This document shows positions 247-63,957 of a DNA stretch of 64,000 nucleotides, in pieces (positions within the stretch are counted from its first letter, which is position 1; the number at the start of each line of letters is the position of its first letter). The position numbers and the translations under genes are program-made. A model generated the notes under the pieces. It saw only the letters and a list, made by a program, of their open reading frames with translations. It was not told the DNA's origin and did not search any database. The stretch lies in IMG/VR virus record IMGVR_UViG_3300017970_000189. One strand, given 5' to 3'. Source of the DNA: an uncultured virus (IMG/VR IMGVR_UViG_3300017970_000189). Taxonomy: Duplodnaviria; Heunggongvirae; Uroviricota; Caudoviricetes.

Positions 247-564
247 CTACTTCTTGACCGGAATCAGGCAAGCTCCGGCGAACGCCAGAAGCGCGACCGC
301 TCCCACGATGTACTTCGTGGCCGGGCTCGCGGGCGCCTTCGCAGGAGCCGGAGGCGGCTGAATTGGCGCGGCGGCCGCCGGAGCGGGTGCGGGAGCCGGA
401 GCCGGCGCGGGCGCGGGCGGAGCCGCTGGCGCAGCCGCCGCGGCGCCCTGGTCCGGCGCCGGAGGCGTGGCCTGCGCCTGATAGATGAAAGCCGGTCCAG
501 AAGGATTGACCGAAGACCAGGGCTGGCCGATCACCTTCACTTCCTGAGGATGCGGGAATTGCAT
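247..564 (-). CDS. Pro/Ala-rich protein with C-terminal TM anchor (VIGQ motif)
   Basis: SD aggagag; AP linker; hydrophobic C-terminus then KK; shares QEVK(V/I)(I/V)G and QAQATPP with 586..1140. Confidence 0.75.
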   Translation of the reverse strand: MQFPHPQEVKVIGQPWSSVNPSGPAFIYQAQATPPAPDQGAAAAAPAAPPAPAPAPAPAPAPAAAAPIQPPPAPAKAPASPATKYIVGAVALLAFAGACLIPVKK

Positions 565-585
565 GGCTCTCTCCTTTTTCGAGGA

Positions 586-1140
586 CTACTTCCAAGGAAT
601 CAGGACCGCCGCGAGAAGCACCGCAGCGGCGATTCCCCCGGTGATGTACAGCGACTTTGAGCTTCCCACGGCAGCCGGAGCCTTCGGTGCAGGAGCCGGA
701 GCCGCGCCGCCGCCAGTGGGCACGTTCGGCGCGCAGCCGGTCGGCGTCTGCGTGGTCCCCGCGGGGCACGGACCTACGAACTCATCCGGCGCAGGAGCCG
801 TAGGAGGCGTCGCCTGAGCCTGAAAGACCGTCTCATAGGTCTGGTAGCGTCCGGTCTGCCCTTTGCCGGGAGAAATGGCTGGACCCCAGGGAGGAACCCC
901 ATAGCGGCCGGCCTGCCCCTCGGCTGCATAGACGGCCTCAGCCGTATAAATGGGCTTAGTGCCATACTGAGCGCCCTGGTGCTGAACCGGGACATACGGC
1001 ACTCTTTGCCATGCCCCATTCACATAGATCCTCGTATACATCGGCGGTGGGCCACTTTGTTGGGCCGGGGTCGCAGGCGCCCCCATGCCCACGATTTTCA
1101 CTTCCTGAAACATCGGACTCCACATGACCATCCTCCTCAT
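586..1140 (-). CDS. Pro-rich protein with C-terminal TM anchor and CPxGTTxTPxGC minidomain
   Basis: TM LYITGGIAAAVLLAAVLIPWK; start may be a few codons downstream. Confidence 0.75.
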   Translation of the reverse strand: MRRMVMWSPMFQEVKIVGMGAPATPAQQSGPPPMYTRIYVNGAWQRVPYVPVQHQGAQYGTKPIYTAEAVYAAEGQAGRYGVPPWGPAISPGKGQTGRYQTYETVFQAQATPPTAPAPDEFVGPCPAGTTQTPTGCAPNVPTGGGAAPAPAPKAPAAVGSSKSLYITGGIAAAVLLAAVLIPWK

Positions 1141-1158
1141 TCCCCGAAGGGCAAAATT

Positions 1159-1497
1159 TTACAGAAGCGCCCGGCGTCCCAGACCCGGCGCGAGCCGGAT
1201 CCCCGCCATCCCGGCCTGCTGCCGCTGACATTGCTGAAGATTGAGCAGGGCCTGCTGGTAATTGGCCTTTGCCGTATTCCAGGCCTGTTCCACGCTATTA
1301 AGCTGCGGAGCCAAGCCGTTCACCGTGTCCGTATCTCCGGCCGCCGTCGCCGCCTTGACCTGGGCGGCGTAATTCGCGAGCTGATTCCCTGCATCATCGA
1401 CATCGGCCTGGGCCGCAGACAGGAGCGCCTCGTAGGCCGCGCATGGCAGATTGGGGATCGCCTGTCCCAGGCCTCCCATGACGAAGATCGTCCGCAT
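1159..1497 (-). CDS. helical/coiled-coil protein (GLGQ motif)
   Basis: SD gagag; Ala/Gln-rich helix flanked by two Cys. Confidence 0.7.
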   Translation of the reverse strand: MRTIFVMGGLGQAIPNLPCAAYEALLSAAQADVDDAGNQLANYAAQVKAATAAGDTDTVNGLAPQLNSVEQAWNTAKANYQQALLNLQQCQRQQAGMAGIRLAPGLGRRALL

Positions 1498-1506
1498 GGA
1501 GCTCTC

Positions 1507-1788
1507 CTAGAGAATTTTCATGAGAATGATTCCTCCCAGGATCACCGCGCCTCCGATCACGACGGTCTGCGCGGGGATTCCATAGATCTTCCCCGGGACC
1601 TGGACCCCGACGATGGGCACCGTATAAGGCGCCTCCCCCGGGGCCGCATGGACTGGCGGAGCTCCTCCCCCTCCTGCACCCTGCTGGCCGGGCATCTGAT
1701 CCCGCGGCGTGGGAACGAGCGGGGCGATCTGTCCCATCCAGGGGGAAGAGCGCGGTCCCCTGAAATCTCCGACGTACATCGCGTTCAT
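1507..1788 (-). CDS. small TM-anchored protein (WMGQ motif)
   Basis: ATGA overlap with upstream gene; hydrophobic C-terminus. Confidence 0.7.
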   Translation of the reverse strand: MNAMYVGDFRGPRSSPWMGQIAPLVPTPRDQMPGQQGAGGGGAPPVHAAPGEAPYTVPIVGVQVPGKIYGIPAQTVVIGGAVILGGIILMKIL

Positions 1789-2282
1789 CTTTGGAGGCCC
1801 TTATAAATGAGTCCCGCTCCGCCGATCAGCGCGGCTCCCGAGGCAAGAGCCTGAGTCGTCGTCTTTTCCTGCGCGAAGAGCCGCGTCCCCAGCCCTACGA
1901 GAGCAAGACCGATCCCCCCGAAGATCATCGTCAGATCCGCCTGCTTGGGAGCGAGCGCCGCGGCGATGTCCTTGGCCGCCGGGGTCGGCGCCGGCGTCCC
2001 GGCCGGAAGCGGAGGCGGCACCGAAGACTGTCCGATCCCCTTGGGCTCGATAAACAGCATCTTCTGCCGATCCGCCTCCCGCACCCGGTCCTGCGCCTGC
2101 ATCTCGAGGATGTCCGATGGCGCGATCGGCGCACCCTTCGCCTCAAGCGGCTTTCTCACCGAAGTCGGCCAGATGCCGAAGGGAGGCGGTCCGTAGACGT
2201 GCGGCCCGGGAGGGATCGGATCCGCATACTGTACGAACCCACCCATCCAGCCGCTCCTTTGGAACAAATCTATCCCGGGCAT
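1785..2282 (-). CDS. Pro-rich two-TM membrane protein (GIGQ motif)
   Basis: SD aaggaag; two Gly-rich hydrophobic segments at C-terminus. Confidence 0.7.
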   Translation of the reverse strand: MPGIDLFQRSGWMGGFVQYADPIPPGPHVYGPPPFGIWPTSVRKPLEAKGAPIAPSDILEMQAQDRVREADRQKMLFIEPKGIGQSSVPPPLPAGTPAPTPAAKDIAAALAPKQADLTMIFGGIGLALVGLGTRLFAQEKTTTQALASGAALIGGAGLIYKGLQR

Positions 2283-2293: not shown

Positions 2294-2575
2294 TTAAAGC
2301 TGAATGAGAGGCCCGACTGTGCCTTTCCCGTAATCAATGTACTGTGCGGTCTGGTCCGCGTAGACGATGTATTCCCCGGACGTATTCACCTTGATGATCT
2401 TCGGATACGTCCCCACCCAGCCTGGCTGGACAGGCTGAAGCCTGAGAAGATCCCGCGCCTGCTGCTCGATCTGCTCCTGCGTCAGGTTGATATGGAGCGG
2501 ACCGACTCCCTGGCCCTGTCCCATAAAGGAAAACGGATTTCCACCAAAACCCATCTCAAAAAAGCTCCGTGACAT
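2294..2575 (-). CDS. hypothetical protein with MSRSFFEMGF leader and FMGQ motif
   Basis: start reassigned to ATG 2575 (SD ggag); leader resembles those of 59851..60405 and 60402..60812. Confidence 0.7.
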   Translation of the reverse strand: MSRSFFEMGFGGNPFSFMGQGQGVGPLHINLTQEQIEQQARDLLRLQPVQPGWVGTYPKIIKVNTSGEYIVYADQTAQYIDYGKGTVGPLIQL

Positions 2576-2577
2576 AG

Positions 2578-3297
2578 CTACTCCGGTATCTCCACGGTCG
2601 GAAGTTTTCCTTGGATCCTCGAGAGAACCTGGAGGAACATCCTCCCTTCCCGAATCATGTGAAGCGCCAGGACCGGGTGGATGATGGACTCCACCTGGGC
2701 CGTCCCGATCCCATTCTGGGTGAAATATTTGTCGAGCAGGATCCCCGCCTTCTGCGAGAGCACGATGAACCCCTGCTCCATCGATTGGCAGCCCGACTCC
2801 AGGTCCTCCAGTTTTTCTTGAAGGGCTTCCGCCTGCTTGATCAGGAGCTTTTCTTCCGGGTCGAGCAGATGCGCCGTAAACGCCGCGTGATCCGCCATGA
2901 ACCCCAGCCACGCGCAGAGCTCGTCCGACGCCTGAGCTAAGCCCGCCTTCTTGGACACCACCGTGAGACTCGTCATGAAATAATCGAGTTCGTCCCGCCA
3001 GTGCCTGACCATTGAGGCGAAGAGCCACCCCAGCCATTCCCCGGCCTGGAGGCGACCATAAACCCGGGTCTTGAACTGCCGGAGCTGATTGGCGAGGGGC
3101 TTTACCATTTCGACAAGGGATACCTCATCCGAAGGAGAGGCCTGAGCGGGAAGAGAGGTCCTAAACGCTTCCCAGTCGGAATGCAGTTTCTGTGCCTGGT
3201 TTTTCAGATCCTGGGGATCCAGACCGAGTTGCAAAAACAGGCAGTGTTCACTCATCTGGCGCGACCAGAATCGGACGAGTTCGAGCGTATTGGCCAT
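2578..3297 (-). CDS. DUF2935-like protein (duplicated helical His/Glu repeat)
   Basis: FWxxQMxEH...ELDYF and WLxFMADHA...HxxRE repeats; start reassigned to ATG 3297. Confidence 0.7.
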   Translation of the reverse strand: MANTLELVRFWSRQMSEHCLFLQLGLDPQDLKNQAQKLHSDWEAFRTSLPAQASPSDEVSLVEMVKPLANQLRQFKTRVYGRLQAGEWLGWLFASMVRHWRDELDYFMTSLTVVSKKAGLAQASDELCAWLGFMADHAAFTAHLLDPEEKLLIKQAEALQEKLEDLESGCQSMEQGFIVLSQKAGILLDKYFTQNGIGTAQVESIIHPVLALHMIREGRMFLQVLSRIQGKLPTVEIPE

Positions 3298-3737
3298 CAG
3301 AAGCTCCGCGCTCCAGGAACAGCCGTTACGCCAGGGGCCGCAGGAACCGGTTCCGGAACCGTTACCGGTGCTTTGGGACAGCCTTCCGGAGGATGGACGC
3401 CGGCGATCCGCTTTCCAACGCTGATCAAGTCGGCTATTCCGGCCAGACCGTTTCCTACGGCCAGAATCCAGGCGATCCCCGAAACCCACCGGTTCTTTTC
3501 CTTCAGGCCCACGGAAATGCCCAGCCATGTGGTGCCGCCGTGGAACAGCAGACGAAGGACATCCCCCATATAGGATGGCCAACCCATGATCTGATCAAAA
3601 GTCTGCCCAATCCGAGGATGGCCGCCGCTCAAATCAGGATGTGAAATATCGGTCAATAGCGAAATGCTTCGAACTGCCGACACCAGGGGCACCTGCCCCA
3701 GGAAAGGTTTCTGGACTGGTGGTCGATAATTTAACAC
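3297..3737 (-). CDS. membrane protein, WxGxxxGL(K/R)EK hairpin family (FLGQ, RIGQ)
   Basis: TWLGISVGLKEKNRWVSGIAW. Confidence 0.7.
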   Translation of the reverse strand: MLNYRPPVQKPFLGQVPLVSAVRSISLLTDISHPDLSGGHPRIGQTFDQIMGWPSYMGDVLRLLFHGGTTWLGISVGLKEKNRWVSGIAWILAVGNGLAGIADLISVGKRIAGVHPPEGCPKAPVTVPEPVPAAPGVTAVPGARSF

Positions 3738-4086: not shown

Positions 4087-5422
4087 GTCTTTTCTCCATC
4101 TATGGAGATCACCCGGCCGGCTGATAATTCAGTACGCAACCTCCAGTCTTCTCCACACCCACGGAGATCGCCCCCGGATCCGCAGCCATCCGAACCTCGA
4201 GCGATGGTCTTCTCCCTACGCCCGGAGATCAACCTCCCTTGAACCCAACGATCGCGGGCATGTACTGGTCTTCTCCATATGCACGGAGATCGCCCCGTCG
4301 TCCGACTTCAATGGATAGCGTGCCGGAGTTTTCTCCATACGCACGGAGATCGCCCGCAGGTTAGCCTAACACCCTACGAGACTCCCACACCTTCTTCCTC
4401 GCACGAAGATCACCCCAGCACTAGCGTGGTCATACACCACCCCTTCGGCCTTCTCCTCACACACAGAGATCCTTCGGTCGCGAGCAGCTCCTGCATGCAC
4501 TCCGCCTCGTTTTCTCCACTCGCGCGGAGATCAACCTCCCTCGAGCTTTTCCGCTTCCATGCTGGTGAGGTCTTCTCCATGCGCACGGAGATCACCCCTT
4601 CGAACCTTGGCCTCCAACCTCTACGACTTTGTCTTCTCACTTAGAGATTGTCCACACCGAGGCGTAACCGGACGGTCTCTCCAGTCGCCTTCTCCAAATA
4701 CATGGAGATCATTCTGCGGCTGAATAGCCGATGTACCCCTTAAAATCACCTTCTCCCACAGCCGGAGATCGCCCCCATCGCCCCTGGGAAGCCTTCTCCT
4801 CTCCTTCTATCTTCTCCCTCACGCGGAGATCACCCAACCGCCAGCACCGGCCGCGATCAGCCACGCGAGTCTTTTCCCACGCGCGGAGATCACCCTGGAA
4901 CGGCTTGGGCGGAATGGCTCTAAGTTTTCTCCAGACTCGCGGAGATCACCCGGTGTTTCGCTTTACGAAGTCCGGATTCAGGACATCTTCTCCACCTGAA
5001 GATTCCCCTGGCGGACCGCTTAATGTTAGTGAACCCCTCGACTCTTCTCTCCGCATCTCCGGAGATCCCCCCGCCTCCTACGCCTTGACGCTGATCAGCG
5101 GATTTTTTCTCTCGAAGCAGAGATTATCCAGGCGTCGGCAATAGACCGGCCGTTTACCGGAAGCTTTCTCCCGTACGGAGATGACCCCTCGTGATTCCTT
5201 GGCCTACCGCTCGCCTAGTTTCCTTCTCTGGTTACAGAGATTTTCCTGCGCGAATCGACCGCGTGGACCTTGGAAACCTCGTTTCTCCAGACGTGGAGAT
5301 CCTCCTGCGGACATCCTGACGTTATTCGGAGTGCGTGTGTTTATTCTCTACTCGAGAGATAATCCTTGGCCCATACAGGCGAGCGGCGCAGACGTGATCC
5401 CTTCTCCTTACGGAGATTTATC
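4087..5422 (+). CRISPR. orphan type I-E-like CRISPR array, 23 degenerate repeats and 22 spacers
   Basis: consensus about GTCTTCTCCACNCGCACGGAGATCACCC; period about 55-61 nt; starts near 4087,4146,4207,4268,4328,4389,4448,4509,4570,4631,4687,4748,4809,4869,4924,4985,5043,5103,5163,5221,5280,5341,5399; spacers unique, mostly 32-33 nt. Confidence 0.88.
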
Positions 5423-5723
5423 TCAGCGAGACGATCCCGACGATCGCCGCGACAAGAACTCCCCCGGCAATATATACCCCGAGCGGGATGTTCTTGGTCG
5501 ATGGCGTGGGCGCCGGCGCGGGAGCCGGTTGAGGCGTCTGGGCCTGGCTGAGCACTGGAGGCTGCTGCCACGCAGGCGCCGGAAGCGCCCGATTCAGCGA
5601 TGCAAACACCTTGTGAGGGTTGTTCCACAGTCCCGAAGTGGCGGCCTGCATCGCTCCCCCATAAGAATCCGAAGAAGGGGGGAGGAGATTCAGGATTCTA
5701 TACGCCCATGAATTATTTAGCAA
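5418..5723 (-). CDS. small TM-anchored Pro-rich protein (VLSQ motif)
   Basis: PAPAP linker and C-terminal TM. Confidence 0.7.
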   Translation of the reverse strand: MLNNSWAYRILNLLPPSSDSYGGAMQAATSGLWNNPHKVFASLNRALPAPAWQQPPVLSQAQTPQPAPAPAPTPSTKNIPLGVYIAGGVLVAAIVGIVSLR

Positions 5724-18301: not shown

Positions 18302-18643
18302 CTAGGATGACACCCTCATGGCCGGCAGGCCCACCAGCGTCGTCACGCCCGTGCGGCCCCCAAGATAGAGCACCCCGAGCAGCGCCGAGCCTACGCCACC
18401 AACCCAGCCGGCCACCTTGAGATAGTCGTTCCCTTTCTCCCTCAATCCCGTCCGGATCCCCACCCATGCTGCGGCACCAGTGATCGTCAGCACTGAGACC
18501 ATTTCGATAAACCCAGGAATCCCAGTGTATCCCGTGAACAAGAAATCCGGTGCAGGAGGAGGCACCGCAGGCGTTGATGGCGATGTTGACGCTTGAGCCA
18601 AGGCTGTATATACCGGACGATATGCCTGTTGATAAGCGATCAT
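18302..18643 (-). CDS. membrane protein, WxGxxxGL(K/R)EKG hairpin family (ALAQ)
   Basis: MIAYQQAYRP leader; AWVGIRTGLREKG. Confidence 0.75.
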   Translation of the reverse strand: MIAYQQAYRPVYTALAQASTSPSTPAVPPPAPDFLFTGYTGIPGFIEMVSVLTITGAAAWVGIRTGLREKGNDYLKVAGWVGGVGSALLGVLYLGGRTGVTTLVGLPAMRVSS

Positions 18644-18672
18644 AAAATTCCTCAAGGCATTACAGTCTTAGG

Positions 18673-42788: not shown

Positions 42789-43772
42789 TTATCTCTTTCT
42801 TCCCATTACCGGTGCGGCCGGCCTGTTCCATAGTCCGGCAGCCACCGAGACAACCCCTCCTACCACAAGCACTCCAGCTCCAATCATAAACCATTTGATG
42901 AGATTTATATTCGGCGTCCAGATCTTTCCGATTTGAGTGATGGCATCGGTGAATTCTTTTGCCTTGGAAGAATTTGTTGTCTTCAAGGCCTCAAGGACAT
43001 TCCCAAAAGCGGAATCCCCGAAGACGCTCTCCACCGAATCACCGATAGCAGTCGCTGATGGATAGACCGCAAGATTCCCATTCTGAAGGATCCCCACTAG
43101 CCACAAGCCCACCTGATCAATAAAGACCATGTAGCTCGAGAGCTGAGAACCTGGATTGGCTACCACGGAAGCCACTTCCTTAAGGTCCGAAAGAATGCTC
43201 GTATTGCAAAGGTTCCCGAAGTCCAGAATCTCCGTCATCCCGGCCTGGATGGGCCCCAGTGTCCCGGTCTGCACACAGTCGAGCGTATTATCCGGCCGTA
43301 GGAAAGGACTCATCCCCCGTACTTCGGTCGTGAACCTCTTGGGGAGGATATTAATCTCCATCGCATTCAACAGGTTCCGGATGCTCGACATGAAGTTCGG
43401 GAGCGAAAGCTGTTCGCTGAGCGCGATGAGTCCATTTGATGCGCTGATGAACCCAGCCCGGTTCGAATTCGCATTGATCACGGCCAGCGTCCTAGGGTCC
43501 GTCACGAACTCCCGAAGCTCATAAGCCGAATAGGCGATCTTTTCCCGAATACTCCAGAGGAGGTTCGCCACCTTGAAGGCCGCAACGGCGCTATCCTGCG
43601 CCCATGGCATATTCTCCCAATCGGCCTGCTTGACCACGCTCGGGATATCTCCGATCGTCCGAGTCATCGCATCGATCTGGGGAAGTGCCTGACCCAGGCT
43701 TTGGGATCGATTCCAACCTGAGGTCCAGAGTGGGAGAAGATTCTCGACCCGCATACTACTCTTTGACGGCAT
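42789..43772 (-). CDS. membrane protein (SLGQ; C-terminal VMGRKR), paralog of 43756..44802
   Basis: WAQDSAVAAFKVANL, EINILP; C-terminal TM. Confidence 0.75.
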   Translation of the reverse strand: MPSKSSMRVENLLPLWTSGWNRSQSLGQALPQIDAMTRTIGDIPSVVKQADWENMPWAQDSAVAAFKVANLLWSIREKIAYSAYELREFVTDPRTLAVINANSNRAGFISASNGLIALSEQLSLPNFMSSIRNLLNAMEINILPKRFTTEVRGMSPFLRPDNTLDCVQTGTLGPIQAGMTEILDFGNLCNTSILSDLKEVASVVANPGSQLSSYMVFIDQVGLWLVGILQNGNLAVYPSATAIGDSVESVFGDSAFGNVLEALKTTNSSKAKEFTDAITQIGKIWTPNINLIKWFMIGAGVLVVGGVVSVAAGLWNRPAAPVMGRKR

Positions 43773-50187: not shown

Positions 50188-50550
50188 CTAAAGAATGAAC
50201 GGAGGGTTGTTCGGTCCTGTTGGCCCCAGGGTCGGAGGTTCAGGAGTCGTATCCGGCGGAAACCCCTGAAAGACGAACACTCCAAAATCAGGACCTGGAG
50301 CATCCGGGTTGGCTGGAGGAACCGTTTGAGCCTGTCCCACGATCGGAGGAAGCATGGACTGGTCGATCGGCGTCACGCTGACGCTCGTATCCACCCCGAT
50401 ATCCGGTCCTACACTTGAAGCAGGCTGCAGACCTTCGACAGGACCAACGTCACTGAAAAAGAACTCGTCTTCCGGCGTGACGCTTGGACCCTCGGGACCC
50501 AAGCCGGGCCCGATGATGCTCGCGCTTTCTGGTTCCTCGATCTCATCCAT
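50188..50550 (-). CDS. acidic Pro-rich protein with GPD repeats (IVGQ)
   Basis: start reassigned to MDEIEE. Confidence 0.55.
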   Translation of the reverse strand: MDEIEEPESASIIGPGLGPEGPSVTPEDEFFFSDVGPVEGLQPASSVGPDIGVDTSVSVTPIDQSMLPPIVGQAQTVPPANPDAPGPDFGVFVFQGFPPDTTPEPPTLGPTGPNNPPFIL

Positions 50551-50591
50551 ACCATAATGATAGCCGCCACTTCCCTGAAAAACCACGATTT

Positions 50592-50900
50592 TTAAGGCCC
50601 TGGCCAGTAACAAGTCCCGCACCGATCCATTCCGGCCATGAAGAGAAGGATGTACTTATTTCCTCTCTCAAGGCACCTTGGACAGAACCGGATCTCCCTG
50701 GTCGAACCGGGCAGAAGGGATTCCCTGATCTCCCAGATATGAAGCTCATGCGTCTTCGCCGCCGCCTCGTCTCCAGCCCGACCGAGCGATCGATGAGCCT
50801 CCGCGGCGATCCCCCGCCATTCCGTCTCGGACTGCGGAAGCTTCTCAGCCAGCCTTGCGAACGTGGTCGTCGCCATCTCAAGCTCCCTCTCTAGGAACAT
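50592..50900 (-). CDS. hypothetical Zn-ribbon protein
   Basis: FCPRC..RCGTCYWP. Confidence 0.55.
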   Translation of the reverse strand: MFLERELEMATTTFARLAEKLPQSETEWRGIAAEAHRSLGRAGDEAAAKTHELHIWEIRESLLPGSTREIRFCPRCLERGNKYILLFMAGMDRCGTCYWPGP

Positions 50901-53700: not shown

Positions 53701-54570
53701 TTATTTCGCGGGGATCGGATTCATCTGCTTGCAGAGGCCGAACCAGTCGGCGACCGGAATCGGCTGCCCGGGAGCATAGTTGAGCGGCGGCTGAGGCAGA
53801 GCCGGCGGCGGCGGCGGTGGAACCGGGCTTCCACCCGCAGGAGGTGCCGGAGGCGGAATTGGTGGTGGAGGAGGAGGCGCCTGACCTACCACCGGAGGAG
53901 TCTGAGCCACATCGTAGATCGGCTTGTTCGGCGGCACCACCGGCGTCAGCGGCGCGCTTTCACTCCAAGGGAATTGCATCCCCGCAATCGGGAACGTCAC
54001 CTTTTTCGCCCCCGGATTCGAGATGATGCTTGGGGGCGTAGGCGGCGCCGGCTTGGCGCTTGCGCACCGAGGATCCGAGGCGGTCGAAATGGTCAGGCTC
54101 TTGAACGTCGAAAGACATGCATGCGAGACATTCGACATGATGATCGTGTTCGTCGCCGGATCGATGATCGAATAGCCGCCGGGTCCGGGACAGGCGAGGA
54201 CCGGCTTATAAACGGCATCCGGAGGGACTCCGCAAGGATTCTGGTTCTGGCCGACCGAAGGAGATCCCACCGCGGAACAGCGCCAATCTCCCGCCTGCGC
54301 GATCGTGAAATTTCCGAACTGCTTAAGACAGTCCGGGGAAACGCTGCTCATGACCGGAGCGCCGGAGATGGCATCGAGAACATTGTAATAGCCGTTCCCG
54401 ATCGCGCAGGCCACGACCGCACGGCCCCCAGGACCATAGCTTGCCGGAACCAGACAGCCCAAAGGAGCCGGATTGGAAGGTCCCTGTCCCAATCGGCTCG
54501 TCCGAATGGGTCCGGACCCAAGAAGAATGCGACCGCTCATGAGCGGCCGCGTTGGAAACTTTACCTGCAT
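53701..54570 (-). CDS. Cys/Pro-rich protein with duplicated Cys domain (RLGQ, SVGQ, VVGQ)
   Basis: two copies of V(V/L)AC..G.Y..D...MS.VS..CL..F...TI...D.RC. Confidence 0.7.
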   Translation of the reverse strand: MQVKFPTRPLMSGRILLGSGPIRTSRLGQGPSNPAPLGCLVPASYGPGGRAVVACAIGNGYYNVLDAISGAPVMSSVSPDCLKQFGNFTIAQAGDWRCSAVGSPSVGQNQNPCGVPPDAVYKPVLACPGPGGYSIIDPATNTIIMSNVSHACLSTFKSLTISTASDPRCASAKPAPPTPPSIISNPGAKKVTFPIAGMQFPWSESAPLTPVVPPNKPIYDVAQTPPVVGQAPPPPPPIPPPAPPAGGSPVPPPPPPALPQPPLNYAPGQPIPVADWFGLCKQMNPIPAK

Positions 54571-54574: not shown

Positions 54575-54958
54575 TTAGGTCCGGTTTGCCTCGGATCTGG
54601 CAGCCCCTACAAGGACCCCCAATCCTGCCACCGTAGCCAGAGTGAATAGACCGCTCAGCCCAGCCAGGATACCGACGGTCCAACCGGTGAATGAAAGAAA
54701 CCCTTTTTCCTTGATCCCCGTATGGATGCCCACCCAGGCGGCTCCTACGCTGACCGCTGCCACACCCAGCCCGATCGCCATGCCCGTTCCGGCTGCCTGT
54801 CCTACGGCTTGAGCGACTGATTTCGTAGACACTATCGGCGAAGTCGGAGGCCACGCCGGAGGAGGAGTCGGAGGGAAAGGAGCTCCTCCTTGGCCAAGAA
54901 ACCTTGGACCCAGAGGAACTCTCCTCAGCCTCAGTCCTGTCTCCGCATAAGAAAGCAT
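54575..54958 (-). CDS. membrane protein, WxGxxxG(L/I)KEKG hairpin family (FLGQ)
   Basis: start reassigned (SD aggag); AWVGIHTGIKEKG. Confidence 0.75.
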   Translation of the reverse strand: MLSYAETGLRLRRVPLGPRFLGQGGAPFPPTPPPAWPPTSPIVSTKSVAQAVGQAAGTGMAIGLGVAAVSVGAAWVGIHTGIKEKGFLSFTGWTVGILAGLSGLFTLATVAGLGVLVGAARSEANRT

Positions 54959-55499: not shown

Positions 55500-56390
55500 T
55501 TAGGTCACGTTGAAGGTGATGTTGGTAACCAGTTGCTGAGCTTCATTCGGCGTCCGCTTCTTATAGACGGCCATGCTGACGCCCATGGAGCTCGTTCCAA
55601 ACCCGGAACTCTGGTAAGGAAGCTCGAACGTCTGATTTTTCTCCTCGTTCGGCCCGAGCGTCACCTGGAACGACTGCGACCCATGATTCGGTCCGCGATT
55701 GACGCCGGCAAACGTCGGGAATTCGTCCCATTCGAATTGCAGGTTGAACGTCACGGTCTCGCTCGAGGGATTGAAGAGACTCATGACGATGGGGATCCTA
55801 TCGCTCGAGAAGAGGCCTCCAAGGTGAGCGATCGTCTGATCCGGTTGAGGCGTCACGACCTGGATCTGGAGCGTGTTGAACGCTGAAGTCGTCGGAGGCT
55901 GGAACGCCTGCGGAGAAGCGGTTGTCGGCGTCGCTCCGGAAGGAGGTGGCGTCGGACCCGCGGGAGCCGCCGGTGCCGCGGTGCCTCCTTTGATGAGGGT
56001 ATAGACCCCCCATCCCAAAAGCCCCAAGCCGATCACCGTCGTGACCGGTCGGAAGCTCTCAGGGATGACGCTTCCGACCAGGAATGAAGCCGCCCCTCCG
56101 GCCATTAATCCGACCGGGAACATGTATTTTTCCAGACCCGTCGAGATCGTGAGATCGACCTTCGGATTGACCGTAACCAGGCTGTTTTGGCCAAGGCCGT
56201 TCTTCCGATGAGCCGAGAACACAGGAAGCTGAGGAACCCGGGGATAGTTCACCGACGGCATGAACACCGAGCTTGCAAAACTCGGACGATAGCCGGAAAG
56301 GGAGACTAAGGTCGGACGGGGAGCGGCCATCAAACCTTGAATCGGGCTCGAGGGAGCCCTTTTGATGATGATCGGCTCTCTGACTGGCAT
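55500..56390 (-). CDS. membrane protein with C-terminal Ig-like beta domain (GLGQ)
   Basis: two TMs, PT linker, NPSSETVTF..VTLGPNEEK. Confidence 0.72.
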   Translation of the reverse strand: MPVREPIIIKRAPSSPIQGLMAAPRPTLVSLSGYRPSFASSVFMPSVNYPRVPQLPVFSAHRKNGLGQNSLVTVNPKVDLTISTGLEKYMFPVGLMAGGAASFLVGSVIPESFRPVTTVIGLGLLGWGVYTLIKGGTAAPAAPAGPTPPPSGATPTTASPQAFQPPTTSAFNTLQIQVVTPQPDQTIAHLGGLFSSDRIPIVMSLFNPSSETVTFNLQFEWDEFPTFAGVNRGPNHGSQSFQVTLGPNEEKNQTFELPYQSSGFGTSSMGVSMAVYKKRTPNEAQQLVTNITFNVT

Positions 56391-56500: not shown

Positions 56501-56803
56501 CTACGACCGCCATTCCCGCCGTCCTCTCTCTAGCAACCCCTCCACAGGCCTCAGGAAGTTCTCCACCCGGATGCGCGATGTCGTTCCGGCCGAGCTCAGC
56601 CTGGGCAGGATCGGCGGCTGAGGGACCACCACATTAACCTGAGCCTCCGGCTGAATTTTTCTTTTCAAGCTGGTCAAGGGACTTGTGGTCGGAGGCTTGA
56701 CGGCCAGCTCGTCATAGCCGCAGCAGCCGAGCTGGTTCTTCGAGAACCCCATCGAAAACATCGAATGATCGCCCATTCTCAGAACTCCTACTTGCACGGA
56801 CAA
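56501..56803 (-). CDS. hypothetical protein
   Basis: fills the gap; QLGCCG; start uncertain. Confidence 0.5.
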   Translation of the reverse strand: MSVQVGVLRMGDHSMFSMGFSKNQLGCCGYDELAVKPPTTSPLTSLKRKIQPEAQVNVVVPQPPILPRLSSAGTTSRIRVENFLRPVEGLLERGRREWRS

Positions 56804-57105
56804 CAGGTCTTCGAGGGCTTCTTTTTCTTCGGATGATAAAGCTGCAAACGATCCAATCCGTAAATACTGATCACGCCTCCAACCTCAAGCGCAACGGTGA
56901 TCGCTCCGGCAACGAGGATAAGGCCGAGCAGGGAAATGCTGCTCTTGTTTTCCTGCAAAGCCGCCTGAGCTTCCGGAGAAGGATGGACATCCACTGTCAG
57001 AGGTCTTGGGGCTTGAGCCTGGCCTAGAACTGGAGGTTGGATGGATACAAAGGGAGAATATCCAAGCATCGGCGGGGTGTACAGAAAACCATGCCGGGTA
57101 ATCAT
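56788..57105 (-). CDS. small TM protein (VLGQ), paralog of 57977..58288
   Basis: MITRHGFLYTPPMLG..SLLG..LEVGGVI. Confidence 0.75.
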   Translation of the reverse strand: MITRHGFLYTPPMLGYSPFVSIQPPVLGQAQAPRPLTVDVHPSPEAQAALQENKSSISLLGLILVAGAITVALEVGGVISIYGLDRLQLYHPKKKKPSKTCCPCK

Positions 57106-57993
57106 CTATCCCTTCCACAATTCTCCATTTTTGAGGTACTCCCAATCCCGGTTCTCCAGCACCTCGATGATGTATTCGTCGGTTTTCTGATACTCGATTT
57201 CCCCGTAACCCGTTTTCTCCATTTCCCTGGAAATATCCTGAATCCGTTCCTCCAGATATTCCTTGAACTCGCCCACCTCAGCTTCCACCTTCTTATACTC
57301 ACGTTCCTGCTGCACTTCAGCTTCCTTATACCAATCGGGAACGATGATCTCTGGCTTTGGGGGTTCCGGGAAATTCAAAGGTGCCGGCTTTGGACCCGGC
57401 TCCCTGGGACTCCATTCCCTAGGATCGTCCGATGGTTTCGAATGCCGCTCGACTTGTTTCGTCCACTCCCGTATTGGAGCCATGTTCATATCTCGAACTC
57501 GATCCCGAGCACGCATCCATTCCAGATCGATTTTATCCCTCTCACCCTGCCACTCACGCATCTTGCTCAGAAGGTCTTCGGGTACAAGATCCTCTTCCTT
57601 CAAATAAAGCTCGACCTCCGTATCCATCGAGTTCCAGTGGCAATCCCGGCCTCGATGAACAATCTTTGCCCCAATCAAACCATCCTGGGCCAGCTTAAGA
57701 ACCCTTTCGAATCTTTTTTCCGCCTTCTCGGCTTTGATGAAGCTTTCGATGTTCACAGATCCCGAAAAACAAACCCCGTCTCCTTGGGTATAATTCAGGC
57801 CCCATCCGACCTTCATATCCCCAAGCCCGTAATGATCCGCCAAGTCTTGTTCGAACATTTCAGTCAACCACTGAGAATCCGATTCGTCCCAAGTCAAATC
57901 TGGATCATCCCTGAAGTCCTGGATTGCCCGCTCCTTCGCTTTCGGAGAGAGTTCCTTGAACGTATAGAGAGTAAATTCATGCTTTCTGGGCAT
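57106..57993 (-). CDS. conserved phage-type acidic protein
   Basis: YTFKELSPKAKERA..QGDG..EY..DEYIIE. Confidence 0.7.
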   Translation of the reverse strand: MPRKHEFTLYTFKELSPKAKERAIQDFRDDPDLTWDESDSQWLTEMFEQDLADHYGLGDMKVGWGLNYTQGDGVCFSGSVNIESFIKAEKAEKRFERVLKLAQDGLIGAKIVHRGRDCHWNSMDTEVELYLKEEDLVPEDLLSKMREWQGERDKIDLEWMRARDRVRDMNMAPIREWTKQVERHSKPSDDPREWSPREPGPKPAPLNFPEPPKPEIIVPDWYKEAEVQQEREYKKVEAEVGEFKEYLEERIQDISREMEKTGYGEIEYQKTDEYIIEVLENRDWEYLKNGELWKG

Positions 57994-58288
57994 GTTTACT
58001 GGAGAGCTTCTCTTGAAGCTTGTTCAAGCCGAAAATATTGATCACTCCTCCCACCTCGAGCCCCACCAGAACCGCCCCTCCCACGATCAAAATCCCAAGC
58101 AAGGACACGCCATCGCTTGAGGGAGCGGCAGGAGCAGGTGCCGCGACCGCCGGTGCTGGAGCCTGTACTACGATCGTCTGCGGAGCGGTAGCCGGAGGAG
58201 CCTGACCAAGCGCCGTCTCTCCACGAGCCTCAAATACCGCATGCCCGAGCATCGGAGGCGCGTACAGGAAACCCGCTCTATTAATCAT
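57977..58288 (-). CDS. small TM protein (ALGQ), paralog of 56788..57105
   Basis: MINRAGFLYAPPMLG..SLLG..LEVGGVI. Confidence 0.75.
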   Translation of the reverse strand: MINRAGFLYAPPMLGHAVFEARGETALGQAPPATAPQTIVVQAPAPAVAAPAPAAPSSDGVSLLGILIVGGAVLVGLEVGGVINIFGLNKLQEKLSSKHAQKA

Positions 58289-59205: not shown

Positions 59206-59445
59206 TTAAAAGAGCCTCCGCGCAGGAATGATCAACGGTCCGTAGCCGGCCACAGGCGTCGCTGCAACGACTCCAGGAGCCTGGGGCCGGCATACGTACA
59301 CGTCATTCCCACTCGCATCCTTTTCCCAAGCGCACGCCGTTCCCGGAGGGCCCGCTACCCCAGGGGCTTCCACGAGCGGAGTCCCCCAGGGGCTTCCGAC
59401 AGGAACGATCGGCACCTGCCCCAGGAAATGCGGTCTCTTCCACAT
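59206..59445 (-). CDS. small protein (FLGQ) with CxWE..VCxPQ minidomain
   Basis: ACAWEK..YVCRPQ. Confidence 0.65.
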   Translation of the reverse strand: MWKRPHFLGQVPIVPVGSPWGTPLVEAPGVAGPPGTACAWEKDASGNDVYVCRPQAPGVVAATPVAGYGPLIIPARRLF

Positions 59446-59454: not shown

Positions 59455-59826
59455 CTAGGCAAAGCGGAACGGGTTGATCTTCTGCGCGAGCGACGGAGAA
59501 GCGATCCCCGTCAGGGTCGCCAGCCCCAGAATACCGCCACCCACTCCGGCCACCCATCCGGCTACAGAATTGATCCCCTTCTGCTTGAGGCCGGCCTGGA
59601 TGCCCGTGTAGACCACCGCAGCCGAAAACCCGACCGTGAGGACGGTCTCAGCTACCCGGACGCCCACCGACGGAGCCGCAGGCTTTCCGGGAGCCGCTGG
59701 AGCACCCGCCGGAGCTGCTGCTGGAGCAGGCGGGGCTGCGGGACCCGCAGGAGCGGCCCCCGCCGGAGCCTGCCCAACCCAATAATCCCGGAACCTCGGC
59801 TGGTACTGCTGCTGGTAGGGGTACAT
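59455..59826 (-). CDS. membrane protein, hairpin family (WVGQ)
   Basis: YTGIQAGLKQKG..SVAGW. Confidence 0.75.
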   Translation of the reverse strand: MYPYQQQYQPRFRDYWVGQAPAGAAPAGPAAPPAPAAAPAGAPAAPGKPAAPSVGVRVAETVLTVGFSAAVVYTGIQAGLKQKGINSVAGWVAGVGGGILGLATLTGIASPSLAQKINPFRFA

Positions 59827-59850: not shown

Positions 59851-60405
59851 TCACTTCAAAGCAAAAAAGGCAATAGCACCTGCTACCGCCAATCCACCCA
59901 CAATATAAAGGACATCCGACCCTCCCGACGGAGGGGGAGGAGGAGCCATCATGGGAATTCCTCCCTTGGAAGCCGCAGCCGCCTTCTGCGCTGCGCTCTG
60001 AGCGGTAATTTTTTGGACCTCCGCCTTTGAGTAGGCACCGTAGCCGGCGCCTGCTCCAGTAATGGCCGACGTCGCAATTTTCGTCAGATCCGGACTCCCC
60101 CCCGCACCTCCACCCGCGCCCGCTCCTCCTCCACCGCCTCCTCCACCTCCCCCAGCCGGAGCTTGAGGCGCATAGGTAGGCGCAGGAGTCGGCGCCGCTA
60201 CCGGAGCAGGAGAAACTGGCGCTGGCGCAGCCACCGGTGCAGGCGCAGCGGGCAATGAAGGAAGAGACGTGATCGGAGCTCCACCTTCCCCCCAAGGACT
60301 CGTGCCTCCCGCCTCCTGATCCAGTGAGGTGATCATTCCGCCATCATCCTGTCCCATCATGGGACCGAACGAATTGCGGAAGCTCATTTCGAAGAGAGAT
60401 CTCAT
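59851..60405 (-). CDS. Pro/Gly-rich TM-anchored protein (MMGQ)
   Basis: MRSLFEMSF leader; C-terminal TM. Confidence 0.72.
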   Translation of the reverse strand: MRSLFEMSFRNSFGPMMGQDDGGMITSLDQEAGGTSPWGEGGAPITSLPSLPAAPAPVAAPAPVSPAPVAAPTPAPTYAPQAPAGGGGGGGGGGAGAGGGAGGSPDLTKIATSAITGAGAGYGAYSKAEVQKITAQSAAQKAAAASKGGIPMMAPPPPPSGGSDVLYIVGGLAVAGAIAFFALK

Positions 60406-60812
60406 TTTCTCCCCATCACAGCCTGAAGAGGGTTTTCCGTCGAAGTCATTACCACCGCGACTATCCCGGCAGCCAGAGCGAGCCCAACCCCGGCAATAAT
60501 CACCGTATTTTTATCCATTCCGAGAATCTTCCCACTCGGTGGAGGAGCAGCCGGTGCTGCTGCTTGCTGGGTTGCGGCTGCAGTTGCCGCCTGTTGCTGA
60601 GCTTGAGATTGAGCCTGGGCCTCAGCCGCCTGCTTATTGGCGATATCCTCCTGCGTCTTCTTCTGCATTTCCGCGATGGTCTGGTTCATGTGGGCGCCGT
60701 AGACGGCCGCTCCTGCCTGCATGCTCGCGCTGATCAGACTCGGAAGGAAATCAAGCTGCCCAAGTCTGATGGACTTGGGATCCTTGAATCCCATCTCGTA
60801 GAGCGAGCGCAT
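60402..60812 (-). CDS. Gln/Ala-rich TM-anchored protein (RLGQ; C-terminal VMGRK)
   Basis: MRSLYEMGF leader. Confidence 0.72.
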   Translation of the reverse strand: MRSLYEMGFKDPKSIRLGQLDFLPSLISASMQAGAAVYGAHMNQTIAEMQKKTQEDIANKQAAEAQAQSQAQQQAATAAATQQAAAPAAPPPSGKILGMDKNTVIIAGVGLALAAGIVAVVMTSTENPLQAVMGRK

Positions 60813-60815: not shown

Positions 60816-61142
60816 CTAGACCTCGACTGTCCGGCTGATCATTCCCACCGTCCCCAGAAGATTGACCACCGTGAATAACCCGCCTCCCGCAGCAACTGCC
60901 CATCCCAGGATGGAGAAGATCCCCTTCTCCCTAAGACCTGCCCTCACTCCCACCCATGTGGAAAGCGCGCCGAATGCGGTTTCCGCGCTTCCAAGGGCAA
61001 TCGCCATCGTCCGCTGATTGGACGTGAGCGGTGCGGGACCCCTTGCCGGCACAGGAGGTACAGCGGGAACCGGACCTCCCGCCGGAGCCTGGGCAAGCCC
61101 AGCATAGGCTGGCCGATACATCTGCTGGTACTGGATCACCAT
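60816..61142 (-). CDS. membrane protein, hairpin family (GLAQ)
   Basis: TWVGVRAGLREKG..SILGW. Confidence 0.75.
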   Translation of the reverse strand: MVIQYQQMYRPAYAGLAQAPAGGPVPAVPPVPARGPAPLTSNQRTMAIALGSAETAFGALSTWVGVRAGLREKGIFSILGWAVAAGGGLFTVVNLLGTVGMISRTVEV

Positions 61143-61200: not shown

Positions 61201-61614
61201 TTAAGTCGCGACCGGAACTGCCGGTTGCTGGACCGCCGGACCCACGGGCACCTGGGGAACCGGTAGACCCTTCGCGATATAAATCGCGAGCTCCGCCAGG
61301 CTCACGATGCCGGATACCGCGCTCACCGCGGAAACCGTGTAGCCCAGCACCGAAAGAAGGCCCTTCGCCTTCTGGCCCGTGTAGAAGCCTACCCAGCCTC
61401 CTGCCGCGCCAAGCGCGGTCTCGATCACGAGACCTCCGGTGAGTGCCGTCCGGATAAGCGCGGGCGTCAGCTTGCTGGGTGCCGCCGGTACCGGTGCCGC
61501 TGCTCCCGATGGAGGTGCCGCAGGCGTCGGCGCCGGAGGCGTCGCCTGCGACAACCGAACCGGCGAGAGCCGGCGCGTATACGCCGGAGCATACTCCGTC
61601 TGGTAACCGATCAT
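61201..61614 (-). CDS. membrane protein, hairpin family (RLSQ)
   Basis: start reassigned to MIGYQ; GWVGFYTGQKAKG. Confidence 0.75.
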   Translation of the reverse strand: MIGYQTEYAPAYTRRLSPVRLSQATPPAPTPAAPPSGAAAPVPAAPSKLTPALIRTALTGGLVIETALGAAGGWVGFYTGQKAKGLLSVLGYTVSAVSAVSGIVSLAELAIYIAKGLPVPQVPVGPAVQQPAVPVAT

Positions 61615-61636
61615 GAGATCCCTCCGTTTCCTTCCG

Positions 61637-62218
61637 TTACTTCTTGAAGACACCCAGCGCCGCCATTGCCGCCAGACCGCCTCCCACCACGACGGCGGGA
61701 ATGATGTAGTTCGTGGCTTCGCCTCCCGGCGCCTGCACGACCTTCGTGATCACCTGAGGCTCCGGCAGGATCCCGTAGGTGGCCTCCGCCTGGGCCACGT
61801 CGGTCCCGAAGTCCTTGTTGAAGGACTTCAGCCGGTTCACCCGGTTGATCCCCTCGCGCACTCCGAACTCGTCGTAGTTCGTCGGCGTGTAGCTGTTGGC
61901 GTGGGCGATCATGGTCGCGACGCCGTTCCGGGTGTACTGCGCCTTGTCCTGGTTGGTCGGATCCGTCAGACCGTAGGTATCCGCGATCTTCTCGCGGGCG
62001 GTCTGGTTGGCGATCCGCTTCGTCCGCTCGACGAGCTGGTCGAAGAGCGCGACGGCCGCTCTCGCATCCGCATACTCCTGCTGGGCCTGTCCCAGATAGG
62101 GATGCGGGATGGGCCCGGCAAGACCGGCGTTGAAGTTGTCGCCGATGTTGCCCGAAAAGAGCGATCCACGGGAGCCCCCGCCCGAACTGCCGATCATCAC
62201 CATGCCGAGGTTGTACAT
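61637..62218 (-). CDS. TM-anchored helical protein (YLGQ)
   Basis: SD aggag; C-terminal TM then KK. Confidence 0.75.
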   Translation of the reverse strand: MYNLGMVMIGSSGGGSRGSLFSGNIGDNFNAGLAGPIPHPYLGQAQQEYADARAAVALFDQLVERTKRIANQTAREKIADTYGLTDPTNQDKAQYTRNGVATMIAHANSYTPTNYDEFGVREGINRVNRLKSFNKDFGTDVAQAEATYGILPEPQVITKVVQAPGGEATNYIIPAVVVGGGLAAMAALGVFKK

Positions 62219-62236
62219 CTGCCTTTCTCCTAAAAA

Positions 62237-62590
62237 CTATAAAACAAACAGTTTGCACGCGCCGTAAAGTCCGACCGATCCCGCTAACGTCGCAAGGACC
62301 GTATAGTTTTCCCCCCTTAGCAACCACCAAATCCCAGCAAGAGCCACTCCCGTCACGAGCGCCGCTTCCGGGCGACTCGCCAGCACCGGATTCCCAGGCA
62401 TGATGCAGCGCGGGCTGATCACCATGTAGACCGTGCTGGACAACAAGCCTCCCACCAGGAAATCCGTCACGATGCCGATTGAATCCATCGTCCTCTTGGA
62501 GGGATGGAGCGAGGCGATCGCCGGCCTCCGGGTACGCGATAGACCAAGCTCATACCTGGCCGGAGCCCATTTCACAACCTTCGTCGCCAT
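62237..62590 (-). CDS. multi-TM hypothetical protein
   Basis: three hydrophobic segments. Confidence 0.6.
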   Translation of the reverse strand: MATKVVKWAPARYELGLSRTRRPAIASLHPSKRTMDSIGIVTDFLVGGLLSSTVYMVISPRCIMPGNPVLASRPEAALVTGVALAGIWWLLRGENYTVLATLAGSVGLYGACKLFVL

Positions 62591-62593
62591 CCC

Positions 62594-63505
62594 TTACCTC
62601 AGGAAAACCAGATAGATCGCCGCTCCAACCGAAGCAGCAATCCCCAAAACCGGAACCAGAGAAAGCCCTGTGTCCAAAGGCTTTGCGCTCTCTTTGGAAG
62701 GAAGCACAATCCCTTGTCCTATTCTATCCGGCACTTTTTCACCAGGCCCGACGTTCACACGATTCCTTGCCAAGCTTCCCCTTCCAACCAGAGGAACCCT
62801 CCCCAACCAGACCCTGCCCATGCCGATTCCCATATCCCCAGGAAGCGTCATCGGGCCCATGCCTCCTCCGCCTCCTGCTCCAGTGGCGACTGAAATCAAG
62901 CCGCCACCACCGCGGGTTGCAACCGATGGTTTGCCACTACCACCACCTGTAGCTACTGGAGGCGGTGGAGGTGGTGGAGGCGGTTTAGATGTACCGGTAG
63001 GTACATTTGGAAGGCATCCAGATGGAGTTTTAGTTGTTCCTTCGGGACACGTAGAGACGCTTATCGCAGAAGTAAGAGGTGGAGCTACAGGCGGAGGATT
63101 CCAAATCGGTGGACGGTCTGGCAACGTTGGAACATTCGGCCTGCATCCTGCAGGAGTCATCGTCATTCCTTCTCCACATCCCCCCGGAGGTGTAGGTACC
63201 GGCGGTGGGGGTGGAGGAGGAGGATTTTCTGGAGGATGTGTCAGATATCCAGTTGCTACACTTAATGGCGGAGGATTCATACCAGGCGTTAGAGGCCTTG
63301 GAGGACGAGACGGAGGGCGCTGCTCTGGAGCTGGCCCTTGAGTAACGAATGCCGGAGGTCCAGGAGGAGGACCAAATTCCCTAGGTGTAGGTTCAGGTGG
63401 TGGAGGCTGGTTCAGCTTCGCCTTGAACGCACTGATCTCGTTCTGGTAATCCTCCAGCATACCACTCATTTGGACAGGACGAAGATTGAGCACAGGATAT
63501 CTCAC
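62594..63505 (-). CDS. Pro-rich TM-anchored protein with two CxxGxTxTPxGCxPNVPT repeats
   Basis: GTG start overlapping the upstream stop (MRYPVLNL); SVATG repeats; C-terminal TM. Confidence 0.72.
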   Translation of the reverse strand: MRYPVLNLRPVQMSGMLEDYQNEISAFKAKLNQPPPPEPTPREFGPPPGPPAFVTQGPAPEQRPPSRPPRPLTPGMNPPPLSVATGYLTHPPENPPPPPPPPVPTPPGGCGEGMTMTPAGCRPNVPTLPDRPPIWNPPPVAPPLTSAISVSTCPEGTTKTPSGCLPNVPTGTSKPPPPPPPPPVATGGGSGKPSVATRGGGGLISVATGAGGGGGMGPMTLPGDMGIGMGRVWLGRVPLVGRGSLARNRVNVGPGEKVPDRIGQGIVLPSKESAKPLDTGLSLVPVLGIAASVGAAIYLVFLR

Positions 63506-63957
63506 AGCTTGATGACTCCGGTTGCAAATAGCGCGACCAAGCCGGCTACGCCGGCTCCTCCGGCAACGATGGCGGCCGTCGGCACCGTGGACGACTTCTT
63601 CTCGGGCGCAGGCGCAGGAGCGGTCGGCACGGGAGCTCCAGGAGTTGAAGGAGTCGTCAAAGCAGACCCTGGTTTCTTCTCTACAGGAGGAGCCACAGGC
63701 AGCCCGGTGCAGGGATTGAGCCTGCCGCCCGCAATCCAGGCATCGTAAGCGATTCCTTGTTCGCACCCGGACCAGTTGCCATTGGCATCCAGCGTTCCCT
63801 GCTTGGCGATCACGGTCTGGTTCCCGCGGCTATCCGTATAGAGCCAGATCCCATTTTCCCACTCCGGAACTCCGTGCTTGGGCCAATTGGGAATGAGCTT
63901 ATCGCCCAGCGCAAACGCCCGAGGCGGAAGCACGCCGAAGACATCGATCGCGCGCAT
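63502..63957 (-). CDS. TM-anchored protein (ALGD)
   Basis: SD aaggag; PT linker; C-terminal TM. Confidence 0.7.
   Translation of the reverse strand: MRAIDVFGVLPPRAFALGDKLIPNWPKHGVPEWENGIWLYTDSRGNQTVIAKQGTLDANGNWSGCEQGIAYDAWIAGGRLNPCTGLPVAPPVEKKPGSALTTPSTPGAPVPTAPAPAPEKKSSTVPTAAIVAGGAGVAGLVALFATGVIKL

Follow-up and report, generated by a model that had tools for sequence, protein, structure and literature searches.

An N-terminal L-G-Q leader on many unrelated, mostly membrane-anchored proteins of a huge virus-like element: a candidate sorting and maturation signal

In adenoviruses, poxviruses and African swine fever virus (ASFV), one protease (AVP, I7 and pS273R, respectively, all clan CE cysteine proteases of eukaryotic viruses) matures many particle proteins, including membrane proteins, at short sites in which a hydrophobic residue lies ahead of Gly. 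In bacteriophage T4, the cut site is L/I-X-E. The internal proteins of T4 are loaded via a capsid-targeting sequence, and gp21 removes N-terminal propeptides; in giant phages such as SPN3US, the N-terminal propeptides that are cut at A-X-E have 20-254 residues, and the cuts are often made at more than one site (PMC5694885, PMC10052503, PMC3012670). In the present study, we analysed a stretch of 64,000 nucleotides (hereafter, the window) from an uncultured virus, IMG/VR record IMGVR_UViG_3300017970_000189, in which an initial annotation had noted the motif [LMIV]-G-Q in about 25 small proteins and had proposed that a protease of the element cuts them there. The reading that we favour, to which we give about half of our confidence, is that the motif belongs to a portable N-terminal leader that one factor reads for sorting and that is then cut inside L-G-Q.

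All 26 open reading frames (ORFs) named in the initial annotation carry the motif assigned to them, and all lie on the minus strand. The coordinates in that list are the low ends of the ORFs and not motif positions; below, each carrier is named by its low coordinate, and motif positions are those of the motif codons. Enrichment over background was borne out: 103 non-overlapping minus-strand ORFs together contain [LMIV]GQ 32 times, where shuffling within each protein gives 13.4±3.6 (about 2.4-fold; the maximum was 26, and 0 of 1000 shuffles reached 32). The tripeptide LGQ was seen 17 times with 4.8 expected, and it ranks among the top tripeptides outside low-complexity sequence. The motif falls within the first 45 residues in 14 of the 103 ORFs, against 3.1±1.7 by shuffling (maximum 12 in 2000 shuffles). 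When ORFs of at least 60 amino acid residues were counted, 19 of 190 on the coding strand had an N-terminal motif, and the opposite strand had no excess (4 of 162). Because synonymous codons vary freely at all three positions of L-G-Q, selection acts on the protein. A signal at the DNA or RNA level was rejected, as all synonymous codons of L, G and Q are in use. The possibility that the L/M/I/V codon is the true start codon was also rejected, as CTT, CTC, CTA, GTC and GTA are common there and the leaders are conserved as protein.

The carriers had been described as otherwise unrelated, which holds for most of them: BLASTP on the post-motif parts left 20 families from the 26 ORFs, with one five-member family and two pairs as the exceptions. 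Profile comparison assigns six ORFs of the window to the two-helix hairpin family (F1): 3297..3737 (FLGQVPLV, 3693-3701, and a second conserved site, RIGQ, 3603-3611), 18302..18655 within a glycosyltransferase cluster (ALAQ, 18593-18601), 54575..54958 from an internal start (FLGQ, 54890-54898), 59455..59826 (WVGQ, 59770-59778), 60816..61142 (GLAQ, 61089-61097), and 61201..61614, also from an internal start (RLSQ, 61546-61554). Conversely, three carriers share the leader MRS[LF][FY]EM.F and differ in their bodies. They are a 93-residue soluble protein at 2294..2575, which begins at an internal start of ORF 2294-3037 just after a DUF2935 gene (leader MSRSFFEMGF; FMGQ, 2516-2524), a 184-residue tail-anchored protein at 59851..60405 (leader MRSLFEMSF; MMGQ, 60349-60357), and a 136-residue membrane protein at 60402..60812 (leader MRSLYEMGF; RLGQ, 60756-60764). 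As only the leader is common to the three, the leader is modular.

The leaders were described at 24 sites. Their length ranges from 4 to 41 residues, with a median of 17. R (1.6x), P (1.7x) and Y/F (2.1-2.3x) are over-represented in them, D (0.23x) and E (0.45x) are depleted, and K is also scarce. Pro is common 2-6 residues ahead of the motif, the residue directly ahead is often aromatic, and the leader often has [YW]-[RQ]-P, followed by φ-[LMIV]-[G>A,S]-Q. The third motif residue is Gln at all 24 sites; the residue after it is A at 10 of them, and Pro/Ala-rich sequence comes next. A hydrophobic segment lies downstream of the motif in 21 of the 26 carriers, often at the extreme C-terminus with one to three basic residues after it, and none of the 26 has a hydrophobic segment in its first 30 residues. 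The architecture that the initial annotation gave for most of the proteins (an Arg/Pro/aromatic leader, a Pro/Ala linker, a membrane anchor and no Sec signal) stood; the five carriers without a membrane segment are 1159, 2294, 50188, 53701 and 59206. A longer form, [FMW][LM]GQV[PKR][LI][VA], occurs in 3297, 42543 and 59206 and three times in 29461, and a variant, LGRVPLV, in 62594. Tandem sites are also seen, two conserved ones in the 3297 subfamily and at least five in 29461. In the case of 1785, 2294, 43756, 50188, 54575 and 55500, the motif is N-terminal only if an internal start is assumed.

The motif also keeps its position in homologues, a point on which the initial annotation had let its proposal stand or fall. 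In the F1 family, [LMIV][GAS]Q lies in the first 45 residues of 46 of 48 database homologues, and the two exceptions are truncated gene calls. In the F1 subfamily of 60816 (11 homologues), R10, P11, A17 and Q18 are invariant, and the linker varies in length and sequence. An exhaustive HMMER search with the family of 55500 (55500..56390; GLGQ, 56187-56195) gave 47 cluster representatives, of which 42 cover the site. In 36 of the 42, [LMIV][GAS]Q lies 12 residues or fewer before the conserved core 'LVTVNPNV', and the site is kept across homologues of 26-66% identity. In one of the six that do not conform (P0095), ALGQ is present but separated from the core by an inserted repeat. In the family of 61637 (61637..62218; YLGQ, 62087-62095), all 10 sequences have L and G, and 7 of the 10 have Q.

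Contigs from metagenomes gave the same picture. The sole contig from the metagenome scan, 4 kb long (L001), encodes homologues of 43756 and 42789, of which the former keeps KLGQ (plus FLGQVRLAG) and the latter RLGQ, with leaders that differ from those in the window; it encodes an additional small protein with ALGQ. In L002, a homologue of 53701 has FLGQ. The locus scans used the narrower alignments A3 and A6, as A2 and A5 were too diverse. The 55500-family profile also found an IMG/VR record of 266,490 bases (G001; CheckV completeness estimate 92%), which contains a stretch syntenic with 53.7-62 kb of the window. In G001, the motif falls within the first 50 residues of 41 of 411 ORFs, where shuffling gives 14.0±3.6 and at most 27 in 500 rounds. 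Over whole proteins there was no enrichment (75 against 61.5±8); thus, the signal in G001 is specific to N-termini. Metagenome and virus collections were the only sources of homologues, which lie on contigs up to 216-427 kb. Two scans of 185,579 species genomes with the family profiles gave no match, F1 and 55500 had no match among cultured phages, and neither single proteins nor the F1 profile found close relatives in IMG/VR.

It is hardly credible, in light of these counts, that the motif has no function and merely reflects paralogy, a Pro/Ala/Gly-rich composition or wrong ORF calls. Some carriers are indeed paralogous, 29461 adds six copies via an internal repeat, several starts are uncertain, and a window of 58% G+C contains long spurious ORFs. 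However, shuffles that keep the composition never reached the observed counts in either the window or G001, the opposite strand and the free codon choice argue in the same direction, 20 families remain after BLAST, and the site persists among the distant homologues mentioned above.

Structure prediction placed the motif at a border. The AlphaFold2 model of 55500 has a coil leader (residues 1-42; predicted local distance difference test score (pLDDT) 48-69), a helical hairpin (44-91), a disordered linker and an immunoglobulin (Ig)-like sandwich (pLDDT >90). Its alignment held 29 of the 47 homologues, mostly rows chosen for keeping the motif, so the invariance seen there is not evidence. In a fold search, the C-terminal domain was a generic Ig/Fn3/CARDB-like sandwich. 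In the model of 61637, a 193-residue tail-anchored helical protein, residues 1-40 have pLDDT <50, the first helix starts from residue 40, and LGQ is at 42-44; its helical domain had no fold-search match at E≤0.001. In both predicted structures, the motif lies where the disordered leader gives way to the folded body. For 42789 and a 574-residue motif-bearing protein of G001, the ESM Atlas gave only leads below 0.9 (viral hypothetical proteins and collagen/BclA-like proteins).

A small residue after a large hydrophobic one, the position at the junction of leader and body, the repeats and the many unrelated families suggest a common propeptide or targeting signal, and a small G/A/S after a large hydrophobic residue is a pattern typical of a protease subsite. 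The virus and its relatives place the leader on about 20 unrelated families, most of them anchored in a membrane via a C-terminal helix or a helical hairpin. In the mechanism we propose, one dedicated factor, either encoded by the element and unrecognisable by sequence or supplied by the host, would recognise the leader, the carriers would be sorted into a common assembly, and a cut inside L-G-Q would then trim the leader off. Such a system would work like the T4 capsid-targeting sequence and its prohead protease, or like the maturation of adenoviruses and poxviruses at Gly sites. Recognition by one factor, the cleavage, its exact bond and the link to the virion are what we infer.

Phage T4 is the nearest documented case. 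The systems of T4 gp21, phiKZ gp175 and SPN3US gp245 are alike in having a short leader common to unrelated proteins, a three-residue site with constrained P3-P1, some substrates with several sites, and a very large phage-like genome (PMC3012670, PMC5694885, PMC10052503). Those proteases cut after Glu, whereas the third residue here is Gln, Pro often comes next, and the carriers are mostly membrane-anchored. A site ending in an acidic residue (D/E) was seen in only 3 of the 42 homologues of 55500 and in two paralogues in G001. In addition, no S77/S80 protease, HK97-type capsid, portal or terminase was recognised in G001. As for the adenovirus/poxvirus/ASFV type, φ-[LMIV]-[G/A/S]-Q fits the Gly-site rule if the cut is G|Q, but the sites there are G-G or A-G. 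We found no published description of an L-G-Q leader in connection with a phage or a propeptide.

The bond G|Q seems the likelier one, because Pro often follows Q (in 6 of the 46 F1 homologues and in several of 55500) and because L-G is more conserved than Q in the 61637 family. The occasional changes of Q to E or D in homologues are also compatible with a pocket that recognises Gln or Glu in front of the cut. The cut at LG|Q with cyclisation of the new N-terminal Gln to pyroglutamate, as envisaged in the initial annotation, is a reasonable conjecture. The Gln might instead be a modification site (the donor of a transglutaminase-type cross-link, or a deamidation site) that fixes the carriers covalently to a partner. 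Q is the most conserved residue of the F1 family, Pro often lies two or three residues after it, Q-x-P is a substrate preference of transglutaminases, and G001 has a sub-threshold Transglut_core match (PF01841; E 0.011). We regard such a modification as very improbable, because some homologues retain L-G but have A, L, D or E in place of Q. The Transglut_core match has only 13.9 bits against a cut-off of 23, and its ORF carries an HNH domain.

Returning to the leader that is read and cut, several observations weigh against it. First, Q is not universal: homologues of 55500 have MGD (twice), MGE, VGA or LRQ at the site, 3 of the 10 sequences in the 61637 family read LGA or LGL, and the G001 paralogues read LGA or LGE. 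Second, some membrane proteins of the same clusters (586, 58299, 62237 and 63502) lack the motif. Third, neither the cysteine or serine protease nor the capsid (HK97-type or jelly-roll) and packaging ATPase for which the initial annotation had looked to the rest of the contig was recognised in the window or in G001, and neither was a portal or a terminase. No protease family was recognised in the window by Pfam, PHROGs or NCBIfam. In G001, PHROGs (139+34+133 ORFs), Pfam (101+150 ORFs) and six-frame searches, whose profiles may fail on divergent proteins, gave no protease family save two weak matches, the Transglut_core one mentioned above and a Peptidase_M9-like one (E 1.4e-7). The prohead protease PF03420 was not found in G001, and the control genomes gave no match to it either; the clan CE and related cysteine proteases PF02902 (Peptidase_C48) and PF06035 were not found there. 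No HK97-type capsid, portal or large terminase (PF07068, PF05065, PF03237) was found in G001, nor any such PHROG, in searches that could miss divergent proteins, and the portal profile PF04860 reached 13.1 bits against a cut-off of 39.1. The tests for a jelly-roll capsid and an FtsK/A32-type ATPase (PF04451, PF01580) were likewise negative in G001, although bacterial jelly-roll capsids are rarely detectable by such profiles. Nor does G001 have a recognisable tail or replicative polymerase gene; its collagen-like repeats alone score as 'tail fibre'. As no capsid, portal or terminase was found, the assembly into which the proteins would be sorted is undefined. Finally, the leaders are conserved within families (the F1 subfamily and 61637), which is also compatible with a functional peptide that is not cleaved.

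The last point leads to a competitor that we find doubtful and yet take seriously, an uncleaved docking peptide. The motif, on a flexible Pro/Ala spacer, would tether a cytoplasmic partner (scaffold, shell or DNA) to the membrane via the C-terminal anchor. The build of leader, spacer and anchor suits a tether, purifying selection acts on the leaders within families, [FMW][LM]GQV[PKR][LI][VA] recurs, also internally, like a binding strand, and the lack of a recognised protease would be expected. On the other hand, the conserved element has only three residues with a small-residue position, as is typical of a cut site, and it lies exactly where the folded or conserved body starts. The leaders also vary widely in length and sequence among families, which is unusual for a single binding pocket.

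The leader differs from the known signals of cells. Signals of the Sec, Tat and lipoprotein types do not fit, as no hydrophobic core lies in the first 30 residues, the +1 residue is Q, and the leaders contain no Cys. Double-glycine (C39) leaders are excluded by L/M/I/V at -2, and the Pfam and domain scans found no C39 peptidase or ABC exporter domain in the window. Type IV prepilin and archaeal class III signals are similar in having a short, positively charged leader that ends in Gly, and haloarchaeal archaellins have Gly-Gln at the cut. However, the hydrophobic helix that directly follows the cut in those proteins is absent here, a Pro/Ala linker or a folded domain taking its place, and no prepilin model matched. 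Another reading is that the machinery of the bacterial host reads the leader, so that the virus would make use of a host pathway for export, insertion or sorting that has yet to be described. The absence of a recognised enzyme in the element and the basic, acid-poor leaders, typical of targeting signals, agree with such a route, as does the 'new protein-sorting system' that the initial annotation had allowed for. It is nevertheless quite unlikely, given the failure to find homologues in species genomes, the lack of a twin-Arg plus h-region or a hydrophobic segment after the motif, and the absence of a match to any NCBIfam sorting-signal model. A separate observation concerns the ORF at 39160-39741 (minus strand), which has a lipoprotein-type signal (…LSTSGC) followed by a Pro/Ala/Thr-rich tail; classical bacterial signals are therefore in use beside the L-G-Q leader.

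The remaining carriers are as follows. Near the low end of the window are a 105-residue tail-anchored Pro/Ala-rich protein at 247..564 (VIGQ, 523-531), a 112-residue protein at 1159..1497 (GLGQ, 1462-1470), a 93-residue tail-anchored protein at 1507..1788 (WMGQ, 1729-1737), and a membrane protein at 1785..2282, in which GIGQ (2028-2036) stands at residue 9 when counted from the internal ATG at 2060. A tail-anchored protein of uncertain start at 5418..5723 has the variant VLSQ (5544-5552). The DUF2935 gene in this part of the window (2578-3582, minus strand; E 9e-30) overlaps two carrier ORFs when the longest start is used; the domain itself starts near 3288, so that the gene probably begins right after the stop of 3297-3737. 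Farther along, a 96-residue two-helix membrane protein at 37705..37995 has MIGQ (37927-37935), and a 79-residue membrane protein at 42543..42782 has MIPFQPFLGQVKLI (42753-42761). The two F4 paralogues are a 327-residue anchored protein at 42789..43772 (SLGQ, 43689-43697) and 43756..44802 (ILGQ, 44653-44661). A Pro-rich protein of uncertain start at 50188..50622 (IVGQ, 50332-50340) and a 289-residue Cys- and Pro-rich protein at 53701..54570 (RLGQ, 54484-54492, plus SVGQ and VVGQ) follow. The F3 pair consists of membrane proteins of 105 residues at 56788..57105 (VLGQ, 57019-57027) and 103 residues at 57977..58288 (ALGQ, 58202-58210), and a 79-residue soluble protein at 59206..59445 has MWKRPHFLGQVPIV (59416-59424).

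The carrier at 29461..31089 is a repeat protein of 542 residues with a C-terminal anchor. Its sites comprise three [LM]GQVPLV units (30253-30261, 30067-30075 and 29944-29952), followed by LMGQ and YLGQ (29803-29811). It also contains eight 'ETSE[AP]TLDLG' repeats, separated by CxxC and Lys-rich spacers, and it has the look of a scaffold or polyprotein that is processed at several places. Another N-terminal element, '[RF][YF]PV[LV]NL.P', is present in this protein (30890-30920), in 62594 (about 63480-63505, if a GTG near 63505 is the start), and in a 385-residue protein of G001 (L009:4949-6106), in which RLGQV follows it. Two anchored Pro-rich proteins, at 586-1140 and 62594-63766 (minus strand), have in common the Cys motif 'CP[EA]GTTxTPxGCxPNVPT', with a second, looser copy in the latter; 586-1140 has a degenerate leader with IVGMG where VIGQ is expected. 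A further GLGQAP, at 38884-38892, lies in frame upstream of the first ATG/GTG/TTG of ORF 38308-38832, within GLGQAPAG…CPEGT (38833-38935, minus strand). The region at 38833-38935 may represent a gene with an unusual start or a frameshift, and the site was left out of the motif counts.

By codon-usage scoring, 72 of the 73 confident ORFs of the window are on the minus strand. The G+C content is about 58%, with an island of 48% at 16-24 kb. Within 33093-53100 (minus strand), 40 tRNA genes occur together with a full-length RNase P RNA of the bacterial class A (42137-42445; 229 bits, Rfam) and a transfer-messenger RNA (tmRNA; 52751-53100; 91 bits), which Rfam called and ARAGORN missed; genes for HNH endonucleases and RtcB and small ORFs lie among them. 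Between 5734 and 26027 (minus strand) is a run of about 17 genes for glycosyltransferases, sugar-nucleotide enzymes and methyltransferases, which includes the 48% island. Together with the many Pro/Ala/Thr-rich proteins and the collagen-like proteins of G001, this run suggests an element that glycosylates its own proteins or the host surface. The other recognised genes of the window encode RtcB, a J-domain protein, a superoxide-dismutase-like protein, a metallophosphatase and HNH endonucleases, and the majority of the remaining ORFs had no match in Pfam, PHROGs or NCBIfam. In the searches for relatives, RtcB reached only about 30% identity, and 57106-57993 gave only weak partial matches. G001 encodes collagen-like repeat proteins, a peptide deformylase, PTH2, a release-factor-like protein and tRNA-His guanylyltransferase, as well as ribonucleotide reductase, a fatty-acid desaturase, an ice-binding-like protein, three thioredoxins and an integrase.

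Proteins of the window itself are recorded on contigs of 426,845 and 242,051 bases. Because of the 40 tRNAs, the bacterial RNase P RNA, the tmRNA and the occurrence of its proteins on contigs up to 427 kb, the element looks like a huge bacterial virus by its gene profile. The giant bacterial virus of the initial annotation is upheld to this extent, the 266-kb relative included; a literature search on huge phages with RNase P and tmRNA found nothing relevant. A review table gives 9-44 kb for bacterial membrane-containing tailless viruses, the largest membrane-containing one being 44 kb (PMC6260650). A bolder version of the favoured reading, which we consider unlikely, is that these are giant non-tailed bacterial viruses (266 to about 427 kb) that build a lipid-containing particle or an intracellular membrane compartment from dozens of tail-anchored proteins, all of them sorted and matured via one novel leader code (…[YW]RP…φ-L-G|Q) with an enzyme from outside the known families. 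In such viruses, the particle proteins would perhaps be decorated by the roughly 17 glycosyltransferases of the element and by collagen-like proteins.

The shared leader gives a computable handle on an almost wholly unannotated proteome. In a very large virus-like clade known only from metagenomes, it picks out about 25-40 proteins per genome that probably have a common destination. The leader could serve as a tag for loading foreign proteins, like the T4 capsid-targeting sequence. If it is cut, it would define a novel protease specificity, with the enzyme still to be discovered. Should the carriers be membrane proteins of the particle, the membrane-containing bacterial viruses would extend far beyond their known size range.

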